From contig JAZNSH010000050.1 of NCBI GenBank assembly GCA_045591115.1, positions 26,294 to 90,293 of the forward strand: DNA of 64,000 bases. The letters are read 5' to 3'. Every line of letters begins with the position of its first letter. Positions within the stretch are counted from its first letter, which is position 1. The notes beneath the pieces are model-generated. The model was not told the origin of the DNA. It made no database searches and was given only the letters and a program-made list of their open reading frames with translations. This stretch comes from Clostridia bacterium. GTDB taxonomy: Bacteria > Bacillota > Clostridia > Christensenellales > QALW01. The position numbers and the translations under genes are program-made. Below are positions 33,441-57,897 of the stretch, one piece after another.

Positions 33441-35684
33441 GTGTTTAAGAAGAAGAAACGATATTTTATATTGATTCCGCTTGTACTCATCGTTATAATT
33501 TCAGTATATTTTTTTTCAGGAGTACCGGATCTTTCTGTAGAAAAAATAAGATCCACATCTCAGGTGCTTACTATTTATGATAAGGATAATAATATTTCGG
33601 CATATCTTGATGGCGGACAAACGAGAAAGAATGTTTCAATCGAAGCTGTTCCCAAGCACGTAATAAATGCATTGCTCGCAATAGAAGATATCAGATTCTA
33701 TGAACACAACGGTATAGATATAAAAAGAATCTTTGGAGCAATGATCAATGATATTTCATCAGGTAGCTTAAAAGAAGGCGGAAGCACGATAACACAACAA
33801 TTGATTAAAAACTCACACCTGAGTAATGAAAAAACTTTTATAAGAAAGATTCACGAAGCAATTTTAGCACTTCAGCTTGAACGGCAATACACTAAGGATG
33901 AGATTCTTGAAATGTATTTGAATTACGTTTACTTTGGTCGTGGTGCATATGGTATTCAGGCTGCAGCGCAAATGTATTTCGGTGTTGATGTTCAAGAACT
34001 TTCCGTTTCACAGGGAGCGATGCTTGTAGGTGTGTTGAAAGCACCATCAAAATTAGCACCGCATATAAATATGGAAAAGGCGATAGAGAGAAGAAATAAT
34101 GTTCTTTTTCAAATGAAAAAGTACGGTTTTATTTCTGATGAACAATATAAGGAATTTTCATCTGAAGATATAAAAATTGTTGAAGATATTTCGCATCCCG
34201 ATTATGGGTATTATACGGATTATGTTTTGGAAGAAAGTGCTAAAATGCTGAATATTTCAGTGGAAGAACTTCTGAATGGCGGTTATAGTGTATATACATC
34301 ACTTGATTCTGAATTACAAGAAAACGTTCAGCAGTTATTTTCTGATAATGAAAATTTTCACGATAACAAAGTTCAGGCCGCAACGGTTGTTATAGATAAT
34401 TTCACGGGGGAAATTTCTGCAATTATGGGTGGCAGGGAGCATAACGGGATGAGAATCTATAATAGAATTACTGCAAGAAGACAACCGGGCTCCGTAATAA
34501 AACCCATTCTTGTTTACGGACCTGCGTTTGAAAATAAAAGTATTACGGCATCAACGGTTATAAATGACTATAGAAAAGATTTTTCAGGATATAAGCCAAC
34601 AAATTTTAAAGATGTATATTATGGAAACGTAACAGTAAGAAAAGCACTTAGTTTGTCTTTAAATGTTCCTGCAGTTGAAATTTTAGAAAGAAACGGCATT
34701 GATTATTCAAAGGAATTTGCTGAAAGAGCAGGGCTTGTTTTTGATGAAAGTGATAATAATTTAGCGCTCGCTTTAGGCGGAATGAAATTTGGTGTTACAC
34801 CGCTTGAAATGGCAGGAGCATATTCTATGCTTGCTCGCTCGGGCGTTTATATTGAACCGCACTGTGTTAGAAAAATTTTAGATAGTAATGGAAAGCTGGT
34901 TTATGAAAACAAGAAGATAAATCAAAAGGTTTTTTCGGAGAAAACAACTTTTTTGTTGACGGATATTTTACGTGACGTTTCAACACACGAAAGTAACGGA
35001 CATAAATTGTTCTCAAGACAAATTGCTACAAAAACGGGAACGGTAGGCTACAATGATTCGGGACATTCCGATGCCTGGTCAGCAAGCTATGTTAACAGTC
35101 ATACCGTTGTTGTGTGGATGGGATATGATAAAACAACAGCCCAACAGTTTTTGCCTTACGATGTAACGGGAAGCTCATATCCGTCCCAAATATCTGCAAA
35201 GATTTTCGAAAAAATATTTGAGAAATACGGGTACGATGATTTTAAAGTTCCTGACGGAATAGTTTCTTTAAAAATTGATAATTTTTCATTGAAAAACGGG
35301 GCAGGAAACTATTTGGCCTCCGATATTCAAACAGATACTGTAAATGAATTTTTTGATTCGGAAAATGCTCCGCAAGAGATAAATTCCTATTGGCAAAAAC
35401 CAACGCTTCCAAAGGATATAAAGGTTCAATTAAACGAACTTCGACAAGCGGAAATTTCTTTTAATGCAACAAATGACTATACTCAATATATAATCATTAA
35501 AAGAAACGCCGTAGGGGATAAAGTTATAGGAAGACTTAACGGAAAAGAAAATGAAAAATTAATTTTAATTGATGAAGAATATTTTTTTGGTGACAGTTAT
35601 ATAATTCAAGCAATGCATTCAAAAATTTCAGTGAATAAAATGCCATATTTAGGTGAAAAAAGCAAGGAATACGTTTTAAATTGA
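33441..35684 (+). CDS. Bifunctional class A penicillin-binding protein (PBP1A type)
   Basis: GT51 motifs EDIRFYEHNGID and GGSTITQQL. Transpeptidase motifs SVIKP (SxxK), SLN, KTGT. Start set to GTG 33441 (AGGTGA 5 nt upstream), because the track start 33216 overlaps the divergent gene. Confidence 0.88.
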   Translation: MFKKKKRYFILIPLVLIVIISVYFFSGVPDLSVEKIRSTSQVLTIYDKDNNISAYLDGGQTRKNVSIEAVPKHVINALLAIEDIRFYEHNGIDIKRIFGAMINDISSGSLKEGGSTITQQLIKNSHLSNEKTFIRKIHEAILALQLERQYTKDEILEMYLNYVYFGRGAYGIQAAAQMYFGVDVQELSVSQGAMLVGVLKAPSKLAPHINMEKAIERRNNVLFQMKKYGFISDEQYKEFSSEDIKIVEDISHPDYGYYTDYVLEESAKMLNISVEELLNGGYSVYTSLDSELQENVQQLFSDNENFHDNKVQAATVVIDNFTGEISAIMGGREHNGMRIYNRITARRQPGSVIKPILVYGPAFENKSITASTVINDYRKDFSGYKPTNFKDVYYGNVTVRKALSLSLNVPAVEILERNGIDYSKEFAERAGLVFDESDNNLALALGGMKFGVTPLEMAGAYSMLARSGVYIEPHCVRKILDSNGKLVYENKKINQKVFSEKTTFLLTDILRDVSTHESNGHKLFSRQIATKTGTVGYNDSGHSDAWSASYVNSHTVVVWMGYDKTTAQQFLPYDVTGSSYPSQISAKIFEKIFEKYGYDDFKVPDGIVSLKIDNFSLKNGAGNYLASDIQTDTVNEFFDSENAPQEINSYWQKPTLPKDIKVQLNELRQAEISFNATNDYTQYIIIKRNAVGDKVIGRLNGKENEKLILIDEEYFFGDSYIIQAMHSKISVNKMPYLGEKSKEYVLN

Positions 35685-35738
35685 TTTTTTTACTTCCAAA
35701 AATTTTCATTATGTGGTAAAATAATAACGGTGATTGTT

Positions 35739-36665
35739 ATGAAAACTGCAATATATGATAAATTTGGAAAAAAGATAGCCGGAGATGTTTCATTAAATGA
35801 AGCATTATCTTCTCACATCTTAAGTAAAGAATTTCCTTTAATTGAAAACGGTAAACTTTACACGCTTCTTTCTGATGGAAGCATTTCTGTTTTGTGTGCA
35901 GAGGAAAGCATTCTTGAGAGCTTTATTGAAAAAAAAGACATTAAGCGTCTTACAAAAGGTGAGTTTCTGAGGAGCTTGCTGTTTGGGGAAGCAAATTCCG
36001 ATATGGTATACTTGTGTTCGCGTTACGGCATTCATTTTGATGATCCGCGCAGGGTTTATGTTGCTCAGGTCAGCGAGGATGTTTCCGAGTATGTATTACC
36101 GCTTGAGGAGCTTTTTGAAGAGGAAAATATTATTGTTGTCGGCCTTGACTCACATCGAATTGCTGTTATCTGTGTTGAAGGCGATAATGATACTGATGAG
36201 ATGGCAGATGCTATAAGTGCAACTTTTCAGGACTTAAATTCAGAATGTTATATCGGCGTAAGCTGTATTGCTGATAACGCATCTGCTCTTTCGGGGGCAT
36301 TTCAACAAGCGCTTTGTGCTATAGAACTTGGTAAGAAAATTTCTTTCAATGGCGGAGTATGGTTCTATTCGGATATTTTACCTGAACTGATTATTTCACA
36401 GATGCCCAAGGAAGCGCTGGATGATCTAAAAGATAAAGCATACAAGGTTAAACGCAGTCTTGATAATGAGAATGTTGAAGTTGCAATGGAGTTTTTTAAG
36501 CATAATCTGAATATAAGTGAAACGGCAAAATGTTGCTTCCTTCATAGAAATACACTTATTAACAGGCTTGATAAAATACAAAAGGATACAGGCTTCAATA
36601 TGCGCAATTTCCACGAAGCTGTAGCTCTCAGATTATATATTGCGGCAAATAAGGTGTTTAAATAA
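35739..36665 (+). CDS. PucR/CdaR-family transcriptional regulator
   Basis: C-terminal PucR-type HTH (NISETAKCCFLHRNTLINRLDKIQKDTGFNMRNFHEAVALRLYI). Start taken at ATG 35739. Confidence 0.8.
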   Translation: MKTAIYDKFGKKIAGDVSLNEALSSHILSKEFPLIENGKLYTLLSDGSISVLCAEESILESFIEKKDIKRLTKGEFLRSLLFGEANSDMVYLCSRYGIHFDDPRRVYVAQVSEDVSEYVLPLEELFEEENIIVVGLDSHRIAVICVEGDNDTDEMADAISATFQDLNSECYIGVSCIADNASALSGAFQQALCAIELGKKISFNGGVWFYSDILPELIISQMPKEALDDLKDKAYKVKRSLDNENVEVAMEFFKHNLNISETAKCCFLHRNTLINRLDKIQKDTGFNMRNFHEAVALRLYIAANKVFK

Positions 36666-37834
36666 TGAAAAAAAGGAAAATATCTTTTACTTCTATTTTG
36701 CTGATAATTACTATCAGCTTTTTAGTTGGCTTTTTATCAAACGGTTTATTAAATAAGTATCTTAATAAGAACGCATTTTCTGATGAACAAATAGATATGA
36801 TCAATATGGTTGGAAAAATCATCAATGATGATGCCATTGAGGTACATCAAAAGGATAAACTTGTTGATTATGCGTTAAAAGGAATGGCGGCGGCGTTAAA
36901 TGACGAATATGCCTATTATTTTACCGCGGAAGAGCTGGATGATTATGTTAAATCAACAAACGGTGTTGTTGAAGGCGGAATTGGTGCATCACTTTATTTT
37001 GATGGTGAAAAATATATTTTTCCTGAAGTCTACAAAGGCCTTGCGGCGTATTCTTCCGGTATATTGCCCGGCGATGAGCTTATCAAAGTAAACGGTGAAA
37101 GCATTGAAGGGTTAAGTCTTGAAGAAATTGTCAGCAAGGTAAAAGGTGAAGCGGGAACTGAAGTAAATATTACTGTTATTCGTGATGGGAAAGAGCTTGC
37201 GTTTAACGTTGTGCGCTCAAATGGTCAAAGAGAGCTTGTTGAATATAAAATGATTGATTCAATTTTATATACAAGAATCATTTCTTTTCACGGAAATGCA
37301 GTTGAGTATTTTTCAAAAGCTCTTGAATATGGTAAAAGCAACAACTATGACGGAATAATTATTGATTTGCGTGATAATCCCGGTGGAGAGCTTGAAGTAT
37401 TCGTTCAGATAGCGGATTACTTGCTTGAAGAAGGCGAAGTTTTTTATGCCTTAGACAAAAACGGAAACAAAATTTTATCTGAAAGATCAAATGCCGGCGG
37501 TGTGGATAAAGAGATATGTGTTATTGTTAACGGCGATTCTGCCAGTGCCTCTGAGGCTTTATGCGGTGCATTAAGAGATCTTGGAAATGCAAAAATTGTG
37601 GGCACAAAAACTTTCGGTAAAGGCATTATGCAGTCAAACTATACACTACCTAACGGAGGAATGTTTAAATTAACTACAGCTAAGTATTATCTTCCCAACG
37701 GTGATTGTATTCAGGGTGAAGGAATCACTCCCGATTATGTTGTGGAGTTACCTGAAAGCTTAAGAGGTAAGATATGGATGCTCAATGAAGAAGATATTCA
37801 ACTGAAAAAAGCAGTAGAGGTATTGACAGAATAG
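36665..37834 (+). CDS. S41-family carboxy-terminal processing protease with PDZ domain
   Basis: 389 aa. N-terminal TM. PDZ (GDELIKVNGESI). S41 core motifs GDSASASE and TKTFGKG. Confidence 0.88.
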   Translation: MKKRKISFTSILLIITISFLVGFLSNGLLNKYLNKNAFSDEQIDMINMVGKIINDDAIEVHQKDKLVDYALKGMAAALNDEYAYYFTAEELDDYVKSTNGVVEGGIGASLYFDGEKYIFPEVYKGLAAYSSGILPGDELIKVNGESIEGLSLEEIVSKVKGEAGTEVNITVIRDGKELAFNVVRSNGQRELVEYKMIDSILYTRIISFHGNAVEYFSKALEYGKSNNYDGIIIDLRDNPGGELEVFVQIADYLLEEGEVFYALDKNGNKILSERSNAGGVDKEICVIVNGDSASASEALCGALRDLGNAKIVGTKTFGKGIMQSNYTLPNGGMFKLTTAKYYLPNGDCIQGEGITPDYVVELPESLRGKIWMLNEEDIQLKKAVEVLTE

Positions 37835-37851
37835 TAAATTAAATATATAAT
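37823..37851 (+). promoter_or_regulatory. Perfect-consensus SigA promoter inside the 3' end of the S41 protease gene
   Basis: TTGACA (37823-37828), 17 nt, TATAAT (37846-37851). Confidence 0.7.
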
Positions 37852-37857
37852 ATAGAT

Positions 37858-37996
37858 GATCAAAGTGAAGGTTTTTCTGACACGGAGATAGTTATACTGC
37901 ATCTGAAAACGAGGTTTAGTACTGAGTTAAGGTAAAGAATAATGGGCGTAATCTCTTTACTGTTGTGCAGTAAAGAGATTTTTTTATGGAGGTAAA
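37858..37996 (+). promoter_or_regulatory. 5' leader with terminator/attenuator (unclassified cis-regulator)
   Basis: About 90 nt of leader precedes the terminator. SD GGAGG (37988-37992) begins 3 nt after the U-tract, so no promoter can fit downstream. A possible antiterminator pairs GTAAAGA (37932-37938) with TCTTTAC (37954-37960). Confidence 0.5.
37950..37985 (+). terminator. Strong intrinsic terminator in the leader
   Basis: 13-bp perfect stem AATCTCTTTACTG / CAGTAAAGAGATT with a 5-nt loop, followed by TTTTT. Confidence 0.85.
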
Positions 37997-38266
37997 ATGG
38001 AAAACAGAATAGGAATTGTAGGTATTGTTATTGATGACCCCACAAAAGCGGCAGAAAAGGTAAATGAAATTTTAAGTGAATTTTCTGACATTATTATCGG
38101 AAGAATGGGGCTTCCGTATAGAAAACGTTCTATTCACGTTATATCAATAATGGTGGATGGAACCAATGAACGCATCGGTGCACTTTCCGGGAAATTAGGA
38201 AGACTTGAAGGTGTAAATGCTAAATGCGTGTTGTCTAATAAAAAATATGAAGGAGATTTATTATGA
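37997..38266 (+). CDS. TM1266-family small ACT-like protein (family annotated as a putative iron-only hydrogenase system regulator)
   Basis: 89 aa. RIGIVGIVIDD...INEILSEFSDIIIGRMGLPYR...HVISIMVDGTNERIGALSGKLGRLEGV matches my recollection of the TM1266 family. Not verified by any search. Confidence 0.6.
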   Translation: MENRIGIVGIVIDDPTKAAEKVNEILSEFSDIIIGRMGLPYRKRSIHVISIMVDGTNERIGALSGKLGRLEGVNAKCVLSNKKYEGDLL

Positions 38267-39219
38267 AAAAATTTTTAAGTTTAATTTTATGTGTTGTTAT
38301 GTTGTTGGCTGTTGGGTGTAAAGAGGAACAAACAGAAACCACAGTTGAAGTGAAGATCGGTGCTCTTATGGGTCCGACCGGGATGGGAATGTCAAAGCTT
38401 ATGGATGACGGTAAAAATAATAAAACTGTCAATAAATACACCTTTGAGCTTTTCAGTGCGCCCACTGATATTTCGGGTCCCATTATAAACGGTGAATTAG
38501 ATATTGCAGCAGTTTCAACAAATCTTGCGGCTACACTTTATAATAAAACCAACGGTAAAGTTAAATTGCTTGCTCTTAACACATTAGGTGTATTATACAT
38601 TCTTGAAAAAGGCAACTCAGTAAATTCAATTAAAGATCTTGAAGGTAAAAAGATTTATTCTTCAGGCCAAGCTGCAACACCACAGTATGCACTTGATTAT
38701 GTTTTAAAACAGAATAATATAAACTGTGAAGTAGAATATTTTCCATCTCATGCAGAGCTTGCTACACAGGCTTTGGCGGGTAATGCTGATATAATTCTCA
38801 TTCCCGAGCCTCAGGTATCAACAATTATTTCTAAAAATCCCGAATTCAGAATTGCTGTTGATTTTAATGCAGCTTGGGATGAGGCAACCAATAATGAGGC
38901 AATTTTCTCAATGGGATGCCTTGTTGTCAGAAGTGAGTTTGCCGAGAAAAATCCTGAAGCAGTAAAAAAATTTCTTAAAGAATATACTGCGTCGGTTAAA
39001 TATGTAAATGAAAATCCAAAAGAGGCTGCGGAGATCATAGCAGAAAATAAAATCGTTCCCAATGCGGCTATTGCGGAAAAGGCAATTCCCAATGCAAAAA
39101 TGGTAACGATTTCAGGTAATGATATGAAGGAAAAAACAAAGAAATATCTTCAGATACTTTTTGAAAGTGATAAAAAATCAGTAGGCGGTGCATTGCCGGG
39201 TGAGGACTTCTATTATTAA
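38263..39219 (+). CDS. ABC transporter substrate-binding lipoprotein (NMT1/THI5 - SsuA/TauA-like)
   Basis: 318 aa. Lipobox LLAVGC. Periplasmic-binding type 2 fold pattern. ATGA overlap with the upstream gene. Confidence 0.8.
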   Translation: MKKFLSLILCVVMLLAVGCKEEQTETTVEVKIGALMGPTGMGMSKLMDDGKNNKTVNKYTFELFSAPTDISGPIINGELDIAAVSTNLAATLYNKTNGKVKLLALNTLGVLYILEKGNSVNSIKDLEGKKIYSSGQAATPQYALDYVLKQNNINCEVEYFPSHAELATQALAGNADIILIPEPQVSTIISKNPEFRIAVDFNAAWDEATNNEAIFSMGCLVVRSEFAEKNPEAVKKFLKEYTASVKYVNENPKEAAEIIAENKIVPNAAIAEKAIPNAKMVTISGNDMKEKTKKYLQILFESDKKSVGGALPGEDFYY

Positions 39220-39967
39220 AAAAATAATTTTAACGCTATCAATAACTGCAATATGGTTGATTATATGGCAGATAATATATGTTCTTGTGGGGAATCCTCT
39301 TTTTGTGGAATCCCCCAAAAACGTTTTTTTGAGAATGGTTCAACTAATACAGGAAATTGAATTTTGGAAAACCGTTTTCTTAAGCGTTATCAGTATTTTG
39401 CAAGGGTTTGTCCTTGGCATAATATTCGGAACTTTGATGGCTTTTGTAAGTATAAATGAATTTTTTAATAGCCTTTTTTCGCCCCTTAAAATAATTATAA
39501 GAGCCACACCTATTGCTTCAATTATAATGCTTATGTGGATATGGCTTGAAAGAGCATATATTCCGGTTTTTGTCGCTTTTTTAATGGTTACGCCAATACT
39601 CTGGGGAAATGTTTCCACTGGCATAAAAAGTGTAAAAAAAGAACATATAGAGTTTGCGAAAGTATATAAATTTTCAAGAATAAAAAAGTTTAAATATATA
39701 TATGTTCCCACTGTATTACCTTATTTTGCCACTGCGGTATGCACTTCATCGGGACTTGTTTGGAAAGCGGGTATTGCAGCGGAGGTGCTTTGTCAGCCAC
39801 CCAAAACCATAGGTGCCAATTTGTTTTTTGCAAAGGGAAGCTTTGAATATCTTGATGTTTTTGTGTGGACGGCAGTTATAATTATAATTAGTATATTGCT
39901 TGAAGTTTCTATAAAAAAGATTCTTAAAAAACTTGAAAAACGTTTTAAGTTTGCGGGGTTAACATGA
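39188..39967 (+). CDS. ABC transporter permease (NitT/TauT family type)
   Basis: 259 aa. Six predicted TM helices. Conserved cytoplasmic loop region (FAKVYKFSRIKKFKYIYVPTVLPY). GTG start is uncertain (39188 or 39200). Confidence 0.8.
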   Translation: MHCRVRTSIIKKIILTLSITAIWLIIWQIIYVLVGNPLFVESPKNVFLRMVQLIQEIEFWKTVFLSVISILQGFVLGIIFGTLMAFVSINEFFNSLFSPLKIIIRATPIASIIMLMWIWLERAYIPVFVAFLMVTPILWGNVSTGIKSVKKEHIEFAKVYKFSRIKKFKYIYVPTVLPYFATAVCTSSGLVWKAGIAAEVLCQPPKTIGANLFFAKGSFEYLDVFVWTAVIIIISILLEVSIKKILKKLEKRFKFAGLT

Positions 39968-40512
39968 TAAATATTGAAAATCTTACTGTGAAGTTTGATA
40001 AAACGGTAATAAAAGATTTTTCTGTTTTTCTTCCTTCCAAAGGTGTTTATTGCATATTTGCACCATCGGGTGTTGGTAAAACAACGTTGCTTAATGCAAT
40101 AGCAGGGCTTGTAAAATATTCAGGAAAAATTGATGTTTTGGGAAAAATAAGCTATTTATTTCAAGAAGATAGATTATTTAATTGGCTTACGGTTAAACAA
40201 AATATAATGATTATTGAACCTGATCCTGAAAAAGTTGAAAAATATGCTGAAGCATTTGGCGTAAATGATTTTATAAATGAAATGCCACAAGAGCTTTCTG
40301 GAGGAATGAGAAGGCGAGTAGGTCTTGTGAGAACACTTGCTTTTGATGCTGATGTATTTTTATTAGATGAGCCTTTTAACGGCCTTGATGAAGAAAACGT
40401 GAAAAAGGTTTATGAGGTTATAAAAGAAATTTCAAAGGAAAAGCTTGTGCTTCTTGTTACCCATAATGAACAAGATGCTATCAACTTAAATGCTGAAAAA
40501 ATTTTACTTTAA
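39964..40512 (+). CDS. ABC transporter ATP-binding protein (compact, 182 aa)
   Basis: Walker A APSGVGKTT, Q-loop LFQED, signature LSGGMRRR, Walker B VFLLDEP, H-loop VTHN. Confidence 0.85.
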   Translation: MINIENLTVKFDKTVIKDFSVFLPSKGVYCIFAPSGVGKTTLLNAIAGLVKYSGKIDVLGKISYLFQEDRLFNWLTVKQNIMIIEPDPEKVEKYAEAFGVNDFINEMPQELSGGMRRRVGLVRTLAFDADVFLLDEPFNGLDEENVKKVYEVIKEISKEKLVLLVTHNEQDAINLNAEKILL

Positions 40513-40788
40513 GAATTCAGAAAAATTCTTTAACGTGTCAATGTAACTTTCAGATGAACTTCCTTGTGAGCTTATGTTGTTAAATAATCCCGTCAAATTA
40601 GGAAGCATTGAAAATAGATTTGACATATTATTGATTTTTGATGAAAAATTATCTGCGGCTTCAATTGCATTTTTTATGCTATTGAAGCCGTTTTTATTGG
40701 TTAATAAAAATAGAATAAACATAGGAGTTAAATCGTTCACAAACATCGCCTCATTATATTTATATGCACAAAATAATAAAAAGTGCAT
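40504..40788 (-). CDS. Hypothetical protein; coding status doubtful
   Basis: 94-aa ORF with no SD before either ATG. It contains a + strand terminator-like hairpin (40655-40697). An alternative 78-aa + strand ORF overlaps it. Confidence 0.25.
   Translation of the reverse strand: MHFLLFCAYKYNEAMFVNDLTPMFILFLLTNKNGFNSIKNAIEAADNFSSKINNMSNLFSMLPNLTGLFNNISSQGSSSESYIDTLKNFSEFLK
40655..40697 (+). terminator. Terminator-like hairpin about 145 nt downstream of the ABC operon
   Basis: CGGCTTCAAT (40655-40664), 16-nt loop, ATTGAAGCCG (40681-40690), then TTTTTAT. Confidence 0.55.
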
Positions 40789-40809
40789 AACATTATATGA
40801 GGTGATATG

Positions 40810-41091
40810 ATGAAAAGATCATTAAGAAATTCAAACTCAAAGGTAGAAGAAAATAAGCTTAACAGTGAACAAAAAATTCAGTTTGAAAAATTAAAGGATG
40901 TGGCAAAAAAATACGAGGGAAAAAGCGATAATGATATTTTTAAGGATCTTTCCGAAGCTGTTCAGAAAGGGAAAAAGGATGGAACGCTAACCAATGAAAA
41001 AATGGATTCTATTGCATCAACAATCGCTCCGATGCTTAACGGTGAACAAAAAAATAAGCTTAATAAACTTATGCAGACATTAAAAAAATAG
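40810..41091 (+). CDS. Small lysine-rich hypothetical protein
   Basis: 93 aa. GAGGTG (40799-40804) lies 5 nt before ATG 40810. Helical, K/E/N-rich. No family recognised. Confidence 0.55.
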   Translation: MKRSLRNSNSKVEENKLNSEQKIQFEKLKDVAKKYEGKSDNDIFKDLSEAVQKGKKDGTLTNEKMDSIASTIAPMLNGEQKNKLNKLMQTLKK

Positions 41092-41096
41092 GGGAT

Positions 41097-42227
41097 TTAA
41101 CCCCTATTTTTTGATATAAGCTCAAGAACGTTTAAAAGGTAATGAAGTTCTTTTTCGGTGTTAAACATACTTAATGATATTCTTACAGCGCCTTGATCTT
41201 CCGTTCCCAAAAATTTGTGACATAACGGTGCGCAGTGAAAACCTCCGCGAACGCATATTGAATACCGCTTATCAAGTATATCTGCAATTTCGTTGGAGTC
41301 TTTGGTGCCAACATTAAATGCAATAACACCGCTCTTGGCGTGGCGTGGTGAGTATAATTTAATTTTTTTGTTAGTTTTTAGATTATCTATTAAAAACTGC
41401 GCAAGATGTGTTTCGTGTTCGTAAATTTTTTTCTGTCGTTTGCTTATAAATTTTACGCCTTCTTCCAATGCGGAAATATTTTGAACGGATAATGTTCCGC
41501 TTTCAAGATATTCGGGCATATCACTGGGCTGAATGAGATCAAATGTTCTGTTTCCCGTTCCGCCAAAACGAAGAGGAATGGGAAGAGGGACATCTTTTTT
41601 TATTCCCAAAATACCAATTCCTTGGGGACCGTATAAGCTTTTGTGACCTGCAAGGCAAAAATAATCACAATCAATATTCATATCTTGTATTCCTGCTGCT
41701 TGCGCACAGTCCGCTATAAATAAAAGTCCATATTCTTTTGCTATTTTAGCATATTCATTTATTGGCTGAACAAAACCGTTAACGTTTGAAACGTAGTTAA
41801 AAATCATTGCCTTAGTATTCTTTTTAATTGCGTTTGTAAATTGCTTGTCGCTGATATAAAAACCGTTATCAGGGTACAAAACTGAATATTCTATTCCTTT
41901 GTTTTTCATAAATTCAAGGGGTCTTAAAACTGAATTGTGTTCGTAAGCACTTGTGATTATATGATCTCCATCTTTAAAAAGGCCTCGAATAAGAATATTT
42001 AAAGAATCTGTACAACCAAATGTGAAAATAACTCGTTCAGGTGCATCTAAAAAAAGAAAATCACTAATTGTTTTTCTTGCTGAATATATTAATTCTGCTG
42101 CCATAATTGAAGCTTGATGGCCACTTCTTCCGGCATTAGCAGAAAAATTTTTAAAAACTGAATCGCTGCGAAAGTACACTTCGTGCGGTTTAAAAAGCGT
42201 AGTTGCAGCATTATCAAGATAGATCAT
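41097..42227 (-). CDS. Class V aminotransferase-fold PLP enzyme (cysteine desulfurase / selenocysteine lyase-like)
   Basis: PLP-Lys context AGHKSLYGPQG. C-terminal RGGFHCAP motif. Start moved to ATG 42227 (MIYLDNAATT; GGAG 8 nt upstream). Confidence 0.82.
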   Translation of the reverse strand: MIYLDNAATTLFKPHEVYFRSDSVFKNFSANAGRSGHQASIMAAELIYSARKTISDFLFLDAPERVIFTFGCTDSLNILIRGLFKDGDHIITSAYEHNSVLRPLEFMKNKGIEYSVLYPDNGFYISDKQFTNAIKKNTKAMIFNYVSNVNGFVQPINEYAKIAKEYGLLFIADCAQAAGIQDMNIDCDYFCLAGHKSLYGPQGIGILGIKKDVPLPIPLRFGGTGNRTFDLIQPSDMPEYLESGTLSVQNISALEEGVKFISKRQKKIYEHETHLAQFLIDNLKTNKKIKLYSPRHAKSGVIAFNVGTKDSNEIADILDKRYSICVRGGFHCAPLCHKFLGTEDQGAVRISLSMFNTEKELHYLLNVLELISKNRG

Positions 42228-42298
42228 ATCAGCTGCTCCGTTAACCTTTATTTGCTGCACATAATATATTATATTAAAATAGATGTTAGGAGGATACA

Positions 42299-42520
42299 TT
42301 GTTGGAATATATTATTATTGTTTTTCGTTCACGCACGCAAGTTATAAATTTTAAGAAAATTCTTGAGGGAAATGGCATAAATGCGCAGATCGTTTCTACG
42401 CCCAGGAGACTCAATATCGGATGCGGACTATCGTTAAAAGTATTAAACAGAGATTTCTATAGAGCAAAAGAACTTATTGATGTTTATAAGCCACAAGGAT
42501 TTGTTGGCATTTATGATTGA
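42299..42520 (+). CDS. DUF3343 (putative Se/S carrier-like) small protein
   Basis: 73 aa. Pattern IIVFRSRTQ...STPRRLNIGCGLSL is typical of the family as I recall it. TTG start follows TAGGAGGA. Confidence 0.65.
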   Translation: MLEYIIIVFRSRTQVINFKKILEGNGINAQIVSTPRRLNIGCGLSLKVLNRDFYRAKELIDVYKPQGFVGIYD

Positions 42521-52577: not shown

Positions 52578-52585
52578 TTTTTTTT

Positions 52586-52919
52586 GAGTAAGTCGGATGA
52601 CTGCGGTGAAAATACGAGGAAAGTCCGAGCTTCATAGAGCAGGATGCCGGATAACGTCCGGTGGAGGCGACTCTAAGGATAGTGCAACAGAGATATACCG
52701 CCGCGTAAGCGGTAAGGGTGGAAAGGCGAGGTAAGAGCTCACCGAGTGCTATGGCAACTTAGCATTCCTGTAAACCCCATCCGAAGCAAGATTGATAGCG
52801 GAGCATTAACGGCTGCTCGTCGGCTCCCGGGTAATCGCTTAAGCTTTTCGGCAACGAAGAGAATAGATAGATAGTCATCAATACGAAAGTATTACAGAAC
52901 TCGGCTTATAGACTTGCTC
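52586..52919 (+). ncRNA. rnpB: RNase P RNA (appears type A)
   Basis: GAGGAAAGTCCG and ACAGAACTCGGCTTA universal elements. P1 pairs GAGTAAGTC with GACTTGCTC. P2 pairs GGATGACT with AGTCATC. Contains GGTAAGGGTGGAAAGG...GGTAAGAGCTCACC. Confidence 0.92.
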
Positions 52920-52934
52920 AAAATTTTAATGATA

Positions 52935-57820: not shown

Positions 57821-57897
57821 TGGTGTGCGTGGAGGGACTCGAACCCCCGACCTACTGGTTCGTAGCCAGTCACTCTATCCAGCTGAGCTACACACAC
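57821..57897 (-). tRNA. tRNA-Arg (anticodon ACG), CCA encoded
   Basis: Reverse strand reads GTGTGTGTAGCTCAGCTGGATAGAGTGACTGGCTACGAACCAGTAGGTCGGGGGTTCGAGTCCCTCCACGCACACCA. 7-bp acceptor stem, anticodon loop CTACGAA, T-loop TTCGAGT. Confidence 0.93.

Follow-up and report, generated by a model that had tools for sequence, protein, structure and literature searches.

A covarying, dyad-symmetric leader RNA upstream of a TM1266–ABC importer operon, and TM1266 as its candidate attenuation protein

How is an operon controlled if every one of its transcripts must first pass an intrinsic terminator? The question is raised by a four-gene operon in a 64,000-nt stretch of DNA (the window) from a Clostridia bacterium (contig JAZNSH010000050.1), in which the gene of a TM1266-like ACT-fold protein is followed by the genes of an NMT1-type ATP-binding cassette (ABC) importer. 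The leader RNA of this operon is highly structured and carries two copies of a dyad-symmetric module, which was also found upstream of TM1266 genes in many other lineages. The pairing of TM1266 with an importer, which the original prediction had reported and left unexplained, was confirmed, and leader plus TM1266 gene are now best read as a portable regulatory cassette placed ahead of two unrelated gene sets. From the analysis as a whole we give about even chances to a PyrR-like mechanism, in which homotetrameric TM1266 binds the modules and promotes termination. The features of the locus are as follows, in window positions.

37823-37828 and 37846-37851, + strand: sigma-70-type promoter, TTGACA and TATAAT with a 17-nt spacer, 12/12 match
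37859-37889, + strand: module M1, ATC-AA-AGTG-AA-GG-[TTTTT]-CT-GA-CACG-GA-GAT
37896-37901, + strand: 5' strand of helix A, ACTGCA, pairing with TGCAGT at 37966-37971
37903-37932, + strand: module M2, CT-GA(A)-AAC-GA-GG-[TTTAGTA]-CT-GA-GTT-AA-GG
37931-37938, + strand: 5' strand of helix B, GGTAAAGA, forming 8 bp with TCTTTACT at 37954-37961 in the left arm of the terminator
37950-37985, + strand: intrinsic terminator, stem 37950-37962/37968-37980 of 13 perfect bp, loop TTGTG, T-run to 37985
37988-37992, + strand: ribosome-binding site GGAGG, 3 nt past the T-run and kept in orthologues
37997-38266, + strand: gene of the TM1266-like ACT-fold protein, 89 aa (PF21699, TIGR03959)
38263-39219, + strand: gene of a lipoprotein substrate-binding protein (SBP) of the NMT1/SsuA/TauA (NitT/TauT) type, Pfam and NCBIfam matches below the equivalog cut-offs
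39188-39967, + strand: ABC permease gene, domain match to BPD_transp_1
39964-40512, + strand: ABC ATPase gene, 182 aa, canonical motifs present

The promoter was the sole 12/12 match in a scan of positions 35500-42500 (7 kb). Its -35 element lies within the last codons of an S41 protease gene, whose TAG stop is at 37832-37834, and the transcript is predicted to start at ∼37858-37859, the first base of M1; as the -10 element ends 6-7 nt before M1, this module would form the 5' end of the transcript. The stem at 37950-37980 was the strongest terminator-like site of the scanned region and had the make-up of an intrinsic terminator, with 13-14 pairs, 4 G-C, and a T-run (37979-37985) directly after the stem. 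Terminator, GGAGG and the ATG at 37997 are too tightly packed for a promoter, and every operon transcript therefore passes the terminator. A TM1266 protein scan of one genome per GTDB species, with a query set of 20 closer sequences, yielded 80 loci. Twenty of these (L001-L020) were orthologous, with the synteny PucR-like regulator, S41 protease, TM1266, SBP, permease and ATPase, and all 20 had a leader of the window type together with its promoter and terminator; since the arrangement is conserved in 20 orthologous loci, it is not due to chance. Both promoter hexamers and the 6-7 nt gap from the -10 element to M1 were kept in orthologous loci, and in the RNAalifold alignment of the orthologues the terminator showed compensatory changes. 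The original prediction had placed the promoter, the 13-bp hairpin with its U-tract and the ribosome-binding site where they were found here, had seen no room for a second promoter, and had deduced an obligatory, regulated attenuator ahead of the four genes. The positions and, by Pfam and NCBIfam, the gene assignments were borne out, and the conserved arrangement supports the attenuator. In L003 (4716-4985), and likewise in L004, a ∼270-nt insertion separates the intact leader terminator from the TM1266 ribosome-binding site; it has terminal inverted repeats (AACCAAACCATTATAACTT ... AAGTTACAATGGTTTGGTT) and the appearance of a miniature inverted-repeat transposable element, and it shows that terminator and ribosome-binding site need not lie so close together.

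The leader had been described as showing little obvious secondary structure, which was wrong, as two covarying modules and an additional covarying antiterminator helix occupy it. M1 is a hairpin with two 2 × 2 purine internal loops and a helix of 3-4 bp between them, and M2 has the same architecture. Each module consists of two CUGA-N4-RAGG half-sites paired antiparallel, which gives a dyad-symmetric duplex with two purine 2 × 2 loops. Among 19 orthologues, 6 of the 9 pairs of M1 had changed on both sides, and in M2 an A-U pair was exchanged for G-C (11 versus 8 sequences) beside an invariant C-G pair. RNAalifold predicted the two hairpins and the terminator from 19 leaders, with both-sided changes at 9 of 22 predicted pairs. 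In the structure refined by hand, 10 of 17 pairs had changed on both sides in the 19 orthologues, and the covariation score was 0.312 versus 0.191 in shuffles (0/500) and at most 0.108 in slid registers. The check on orthologous upstream regions that had been proposed with the original prediction thus came out in favor of the leader, which was kept in 20 loci and covaried in 19.

A scan of the leader (37780-38060) against Rfam 15 gave no relevant family even at E ≤ 10, in line with the earlier view that no recognizable riboswitch class was present. The best scores were those of mir-4679 (21 bits), L10_leader (20 bits against a gathering score of 44) and PyrR (19.4 bits against 54), and all three were rejected because the alignments were driven by the terminator. 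In the window, gathering-score matches were limited to RNase P RNA class A (52585-52924, + strand, 269.7 bits) and a tRNA (57824-57897, - strand). Gathering-score scans of 33 related loci returned no family covering the leaders, and permissive scans of two further leaders nothing relevant.

The antiterminator pairing between GTAAAGA and TCTTTAC that the original prediction had considered possible is real; it is helix B, which extends over 8 bp and was 88% paired in the 19 orthologues. Helix A, whose 3' strand reaches from the terminator loop into the top of the right arm, closes a three-way-junction antiterminator. For this helix 80% of cells were paired and both-sided changes were present at 4 of 6 pairs, for instance ACCGCA/TGCGGT and GCCGTA/TACGGC; helices A and B together were 84% paired. 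The order of events was derived from minimum free energy (MFE) folds of growing transcripts. Helix B entered the MFE fold once the left arm had been made (transcript end 37962), and at 37972 the fold was the three-way junction of helix A, inner M2 and helix B, at -21.7 kcal/mol. From 37980 on it consisted of the terminator and the complete M2 including its outer AUCU/AGGU helix (-29.8 versus -22.2 kcal/mol). The outer CT/GG helix of M2 shares bases with helices A and B, and these share bases with the terminator. The complete M2 and the antiterminator are therefore mutually exclusive, which makes M2 an anti-antiterminator, and whatever stabilizes the complete M2 should cause termination. The leader has one of the two features by which riboswitches are generally defined, a conserved, covarying structured domain coupled to an expression platform; the other would be direct binding of a small ligand by the RNA alone.

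These folds suggest a three-state attenuator, with M1 and M2 as the sensor and the TM1266-like ACT protein of the first gene as the putative effector. Transcription would start at ∼37858 and M1 would fold at the 5' end of the transcript. During elongation, the three-way-junction antiterminator would hold the left arm and loop of the terminator; the complete M2, with its outer CU/GG helix and flanking GA/AA loop, would then strip both antiterminator helices, so that the terminator forms and the operon is off. A locus without regulation, in which the hairpin is the terminator of the S41 protease gene, read-through is constant and leaky, and the leader hairpins only stabilize the mRNA, is very improbable. 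The terminator does stand 3' of the protease gene, and the full-length MFE fold is the terminated form; however, the stretch from the protease stop to the hairpin holds a conserved consensus promoter, a covarying alternative structure sequesters the terminator, and the same modules accompany terminators or overlap ribosome-binding sites in contexts without a protease gene.

Leader-peptide attenuation had also been proposed, with translation of a 17-codon upstream open reading frame (uORF; MGVISLLLCSKEIFLWR, 37942-37994) through both terminator arms controlling termination or access to the start. The window does have this uORF, with its end 2 nt short of the main ATG, but it was shared with the closest relatives L010 and L011 only, the other 18 orthologous loci having none or one in a different frame. 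In the region scanned, 8 of the 20 loci had no ATG-initiated uORF of at least 8 codons, among them L003 and L004, which count here only because the ∼270-nt insertion falls in that region; the others used other starts and frames. The shared peptide letters merely translate the conserved terminator stem, and no ribosome-binding site precedes the uORF. This mechanism is not supported by the comparison and has next to no probability.

The modules were not confined to the window's clade. In the other 60 loci, the 300 nt preceding TM1266 genes showed a 14-fold enrichment of CYGA-N3-5-RAGG units relative to the rest of the loci, and the units paired with each other, CY of one with GG of the other, GA opposite RA, and N4 with N4'. 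In 39 modules collected by hand from many lineages the covariation score was 0.456 versus 0.223 (0/500), and the hand-made cross-phylum alignment had no invariant column and two columns at or above 90%. A two-module model (R1) gave strong matches in the window's clade only and weak ones in other clades, and was replaced by a single-module model (R2), which M1 and M2 matched at 24.3 and 24.2 bits. A covariance-model search of 785 kb with R2 returned more than 80 matches at E ≤ 0.28, all on the TM1266 strand and nearly all 60-200 nt upstream of a TM1266 gene. Below E = 0.05, 69 of 69 matches were on the TM1266 strand. Of these, 58 lay in a TM1266 leader, 7 inside operons, where they preceded hydG, aspA or hydE, and 4 at or near an operon start, well upstream of TM1266; TM1266 is not the first gene in L026, L033 and L099. 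The alignment of these 69 best modules, which was fitted to R2 and hence leans towards the structure, showed 85% pairing, double-sided changes of 146 versus 54 and a score of 0.577 versus 0.222. Its consensus was C86 U84 G83 A87-N4-A83 A83 G97 G83-[loop]-C99 U90 G81 A88-N4'-R A88 G94 G71, that is, a dyad-symmetric duplex with two 2 × 2 purine loops 4 bp apart and the shared half-site C-U-G-A-N4-R-A-G-G.

The lineages included Clostridia, Desulfotomaculum, Sedimentibacter, Erysipelotrichales, Syntrophales, Desulfofervidaceae, Spirochaetota, Atribacterota, Synergistetes and Solirubrobacterales (Actinomycetota). For years the TM1266 family has been annotated as 'putative iron-only hydrogenase system regulator'. 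In agreement with the original prediction, which had associated the family with [FeFe]-hydrogenase maturation, hydE, hydG and/or hydF stood beside TM1266 in 50 of the 60 loci outside L001-L020, sometimes together with aspartate ammonia-lyase. None of the three genes was found in the 64-kb window or within 5 kb in L001-L020; TM1266 was paired with an ABC importer in the window's clade and in L027, L057, L059, L064 and L068. Extra copies of the module occurred before hydG (L042 6296-6327 and L043 6286-6318, both overlapping the ribosome-binding site; L152 9345-9378; L197 5123-5156), between TM1266 and aspA with a terminator of their own (L032 5279-5330, L034, L035 and L060), and before hydE (L058 5429-5512), while the window itself had leader copies only. 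Read by eye, the 3' half of the module overlapped an antiterminator in L042 and L099, and the module overlapped the ribosome-binding site in L046 as well as upstream of hydG in L042 and L043.

Two tests did not start from the TM1266 gene. An exact-pattern scan of metagenome contigs, blind to TM1266, gave at least 120 loci. Among the matches listed, TM1266 was encoded in 10 of 120 loci; in 9 of the 10 the match was 5-230 nt upstream of TM1266 on the same strand, and in the tenth, L099, the match opened the operon, before hydE and TM1266. Among the inspected matches of that list, none without TM1266 was a credible intergenic module; most of them were chance matches in coding repeats, and the 10 linked to TM1266 are the only ones that look real. 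One such match, CCTGACGCAAAGGAGCTTACTGATGTGAAGGG, recurred in human-gut metagenomes (L089, L094, L101, L107, L134, L145, L150, L154, L167, L185, L189, L190 and L198, the last copy differing by one base). It mimics a module with complementary N4, but it lies inside a 612-aa ABC-exporter open reading frame in the four loci checked (L107, L134, L167 and L189) and was set aside as a chance look-alike; pattern matches of this kind need a context check.

For the second test, the gene context of proteins homologous to the window's SBP (46-54% identity) was sampled. Where the SBP operon was led by TM1266 (L203/204 and L210), modules were present in the leader; in SBP operons without TM1266 (L201/202, L205-209, L211 and L212) no module was found at E ≤ 10, and in the three of these that were scanned with Rfam no family was found. 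In six of the eight SBP operons without TM1266, the first gene, where TM1266 would stand, encoded a Crp/Fnr-type regulator; this regulator (among L205-L209, L211 and L212) had the domains cNMP_binding and HTH_Crp_2 and was encoded just upstream of the SBP. The comparison indicates that the module comes and goes with TM1266 and not with the transporter, and that a DNA-binding regulator replaces both. The Crp-led operon of L212 lies, divergently oriented, beside a sensory cluster that encodes an [FeFe]-hydrogenase-like protein, a HATPase, a DRTGG protein and a NuoE-like protein, which hints that transporters of this family and hydrogenases may be functionally linked. Since the module follows the TM1266 gene and not the transporter, the third mechanism considered in the original prediction, an ACT protein acting on its own leader, is the best supported of those proposed, with a chance of about one in two.

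The assignment of the 89-aa protein to the TM1266 family was clear, with 111.5 bits for TIGR03959 (cut-off 60.8) and 112.1 bits for PF21699 (cut-off 27). Residues 1-78 are homologous to PDB entry 2NZC (phmmer E = 2.4e-15), the TM1266 structure, which is a homotetramer (PMC12626770). The protein has a weak match to NikR_C and no DNA-binding domain, and neither His nor Cys occupies an invariant or nearly invariant column of the TM1266 alignment. A protein partner of the modules is favored because the module tracks TM1266, is dyad-symmetric and has few conserved columns, and because TM1266 is a homotetramer without a DNA-binding domain. In the proposed mechanism, one TM1266 dimer would bind each module and the tetramer would bridge M1 and M2, stabilizing the anti-antiterminator, while a small ligand on the ACT fold may set the affinity for RNA. 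The same cassette of modules, terminator or ribosome-binding site, and TM1266 gene would control hydE/G/F operons in many phyla. We put at one half the probability that the TM1266 family is a new class of ligand-responsive RNA-binding attenuation proteins, in which an ACT-only homotetramer acts on a dyad-symmetric RNA duplex with two tandem purine loops and thereby controls termination or translation of [FeFe]-hydrogenase H-cluster maturation operons in many anaerobic phyla and of an ABC importer in the window's clade.

The main rival is a protein-free riboswitch, in which the modules are the aptamers of a new class, in tandem in the window, a small molecule or ion closes M2 and thereby causes termination, and TM1266 is one regulated gene among others, for example for a ligand-buffering or accessory protein. 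The covarying structure, the purine-rich loops, the platforms consisting of terminator and antiterminator or ribosome-binding site, and the lack of any matching Rfam family would all suit such a class, and tandem and internal copies are known for riboswitches. However, every credible instance of the module was in an operon encoding TM1266, and in homologous transporter operons the RNA and TM1266 were lost jointly, most of the sampled ones gaining a Crp/Fnr regulator. Dyad symmetry without an invariant column is unusual for a ligand pocket and typical of the site of an oligomeric protein, and one metabolite would have to control both the H-cluster maturases and an NMT1-type importer. The riboswitch is therefore a possible but doubtful explanation. 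That another trans-acting factor, such as CsrA (through AAGGA-like motifs), a protein of the L7Ae/YbxF type or a small RNA, binds the modules and TM1266 is a passenger is unlikely. Each module has two RAGG elements and tandem G.A-type loops, features recognized by known RNA-binding proteins, but a housekeeping factor would leave the strict link to TM1266 and the joint loss unexplained. As a CsrA site the module was rejected because the GG of each RAGG is paired in a helix and not presented in a loop, and as a kink-turn/L7Ae site because the loops are symmetric 2 × 2 loops (GA opposite RA) with no 3-nt bulge.

Several points weigh against TM1266 as the attenuation protein. RNA binding by TM1266 is a step that we infer, and an ACT or NikR-C-type domain serving as an RNA-binding attenuator has no precedent known to us. 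An aptamer for a small molecule or ion would also account for a conserved hairpin that has purine-rich internal loops and sometimes occurs in tandem. At full length the terminator state is 7.6 kcal/mol more stable than the antiterminator, and the polarity, with the effector promoting termination, was deduced from which of the two states holds the conserved complete module. The co-occurrence of module and TM1266 arises largely by construction, as the TM1266 gene was the entry point to most loci; samples free of this bias were small (10 pattern matches, and 8 transporter loci without TM1266 that represent ∼5 operon types), and the hydE/G/F operons sampled were those with TM1266. The invariance of GRMG in the protein is not independent evidence, as GRMG was part of the search pattern. 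Finally, some TM1266 loci had no canonical module (L024, L070, L073 and L074; L057, L059, L064 and L068; L062, L063 and L069).

The loci without a canonical module were of two kinds. The four Ruminococcus-type TM1266-hydG loci (L024, L070, L073 and L074) had, ∼200 nt upstream of TM1266, a long, conserved leader of another type that includes a terminator and elements such as GGGAUUUAUUCC, GUUUUCGG and UAUCGG. These leaders were matched by neither R2 nor Rfam and may represent a second leader class for the TM1266 gene, unrelated or highly diverged. In the remaining seven loci the leader had a short hairpin that resembles half a module, with only one tandem G.A loop. It had the form AUC-GA-UGA..UCG-GA-GAU in the TM1266-ABC operons of Christensenellaceae-like genomes (L057, L059, L064 and L068) and CCGA-GGAAA..UUUCC-GA-AGA in spirochaetes (L062, L063 and L069). 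The protein motifs GRMG and GKLG and residue K76 were invariant even in loci without a module, so that these residues do not discriminate between RNA types. Q23 and D/I41 in place of N23 and Y41 occurred solely in the four ABC-linked proteins of L057, L059, L064 and L068, which could be protein-RNA co-variation or simply clade history.

Among known systems, the pyr operon of Bacillus resembles the leader in its logic. As there, the anti-antiterminator overlaps the antiterminator and the antiterminator overlaps the terminator, a design also read in L042 and L099. In the pyr operon the first gene encodes the regulator, further sites lie between cistrons, and the effector promotes termination; in the window the first gene would encode the putative regulator and the effector would act in the same direction, while the candidate sites between cistrons, before hydG, aspA and hydE, are those of related loci. 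Unlike PyrR, which has a phosphoribosyltransferase fold and binds its own type of hairpin, TM1266 is an ACT/NikR-C-like homotetramer and the RNA a dyad-symmetric two-loop duplex. The leader would function along the lines of PyrR attenuation without belonging to the PyrR class. TRAP and HutP are likewise small homo-oligomers with one subunit per short repeated RNA element, under ligand control, and with terminators and ribosome-binding sites as targets; their folds are unrelated to TM1266, and they read single-stranded GAG or UAG triplet repeats, whereas the CUGA-N4-RAGG repeats pair into a duplex. With NikR, the TM1266 family shares the ACT-like tetramerization fold of NikR-C; in contrast to NikR it has no ribbon-helix-helix DNA-binding domain, and the TM1266 gene of the window is linked to an ABC importer and not to hydE/G/F.

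Tandem or symmetric riboswitches, namely the glycine, guanidine-II (mini-ykkC) and NAD+-I classes, are similar in having two like domains in a leader with a terminator platform upstream of a transporter. The modules differ from them in having no Rfam 15 match, no invariant pocket-like core and a strict link to one small-protein gene. The NMT1 motif (xanthine/8-oxoguanine) and the thiamine pyrophosphate (TPP) and hydroxymethylpyrimidine pyrophosphate (HMP-PP) riboswitches often precede NMT1/THI5-type genes, and control of such genes from a 5' leader is what the present case has in common with them. None of these was detected at E ≤ 10 on 37780-38060, and the module follows TM1266 and not the NMT1-type gene. 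No description of the RNA motif or of a function for TM1266 was found in the literature, with subscription-only papers outside the coverage. The principle of attenuation is known, while novelty seems to lie in the RNA motif, its symmetry and the proposed protein partner.

If correct, the TM1266 model would give a widespread family a function and a testable mechanism, would reveal how hydE/G/F, and with them the H-cluster, are regulated in Clostridia, Syntrophales, Spirochaetota, Atribacterota, Synergistetes and Actinomycetota, and would add a new fold and an unusually symmetric RNA site to the short list formed by TRAP, PyrR and HutP. If the protein part of the model is wrong, what is left is a widespread structured leader missing from Rfam, an orphan riboswitch candidate with a link to hydrogenase maturation. 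Under both readings, the identity of the ligand could show which signal gates H-cluster assembly and what the NMT1-type importer carries.

The importer itself was analyzed by sequence searches. SBP, BPD_transp_1 permease and ABC ATPase are encoded in one operon, as expected of a NitT/TauT-type importer. For the substrate, searches of the SBP against Pfam, NCBIfam and PDB sequences led to the generic NMT1/SsuA/TauA group, and no equivalog cut-off was reached; the nearest solved structure was 3HN0, an uncharacterized 'nitrate transport protein' (E = 1.3e-17). The ATPase is unusually short at 182 aa, but it keeps the Walker A motif, Q-loop, signature motif, Walker B motif and H-loop. Its homologues were mostly 181-198 aa long (one had 219 aa), and the compact form is therefore a trait of the family.

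Some further elements were noted in passing. A c-di-GMP-I riboswitch (L039 1743-1827, - strand) and a Clostridiales-1 RNA (L023 9123-9289, - strand) flank TM1266 loci and are unrelated to the modules. On the 3' side of the operon in the window lie two open reading frames of 94 aa, at 40504-40788 (- strand) and 40807-41091 (+ strand), neither of which had a Pfam match. The product of the second is rich in lysine and, judged by eye, probably helical.

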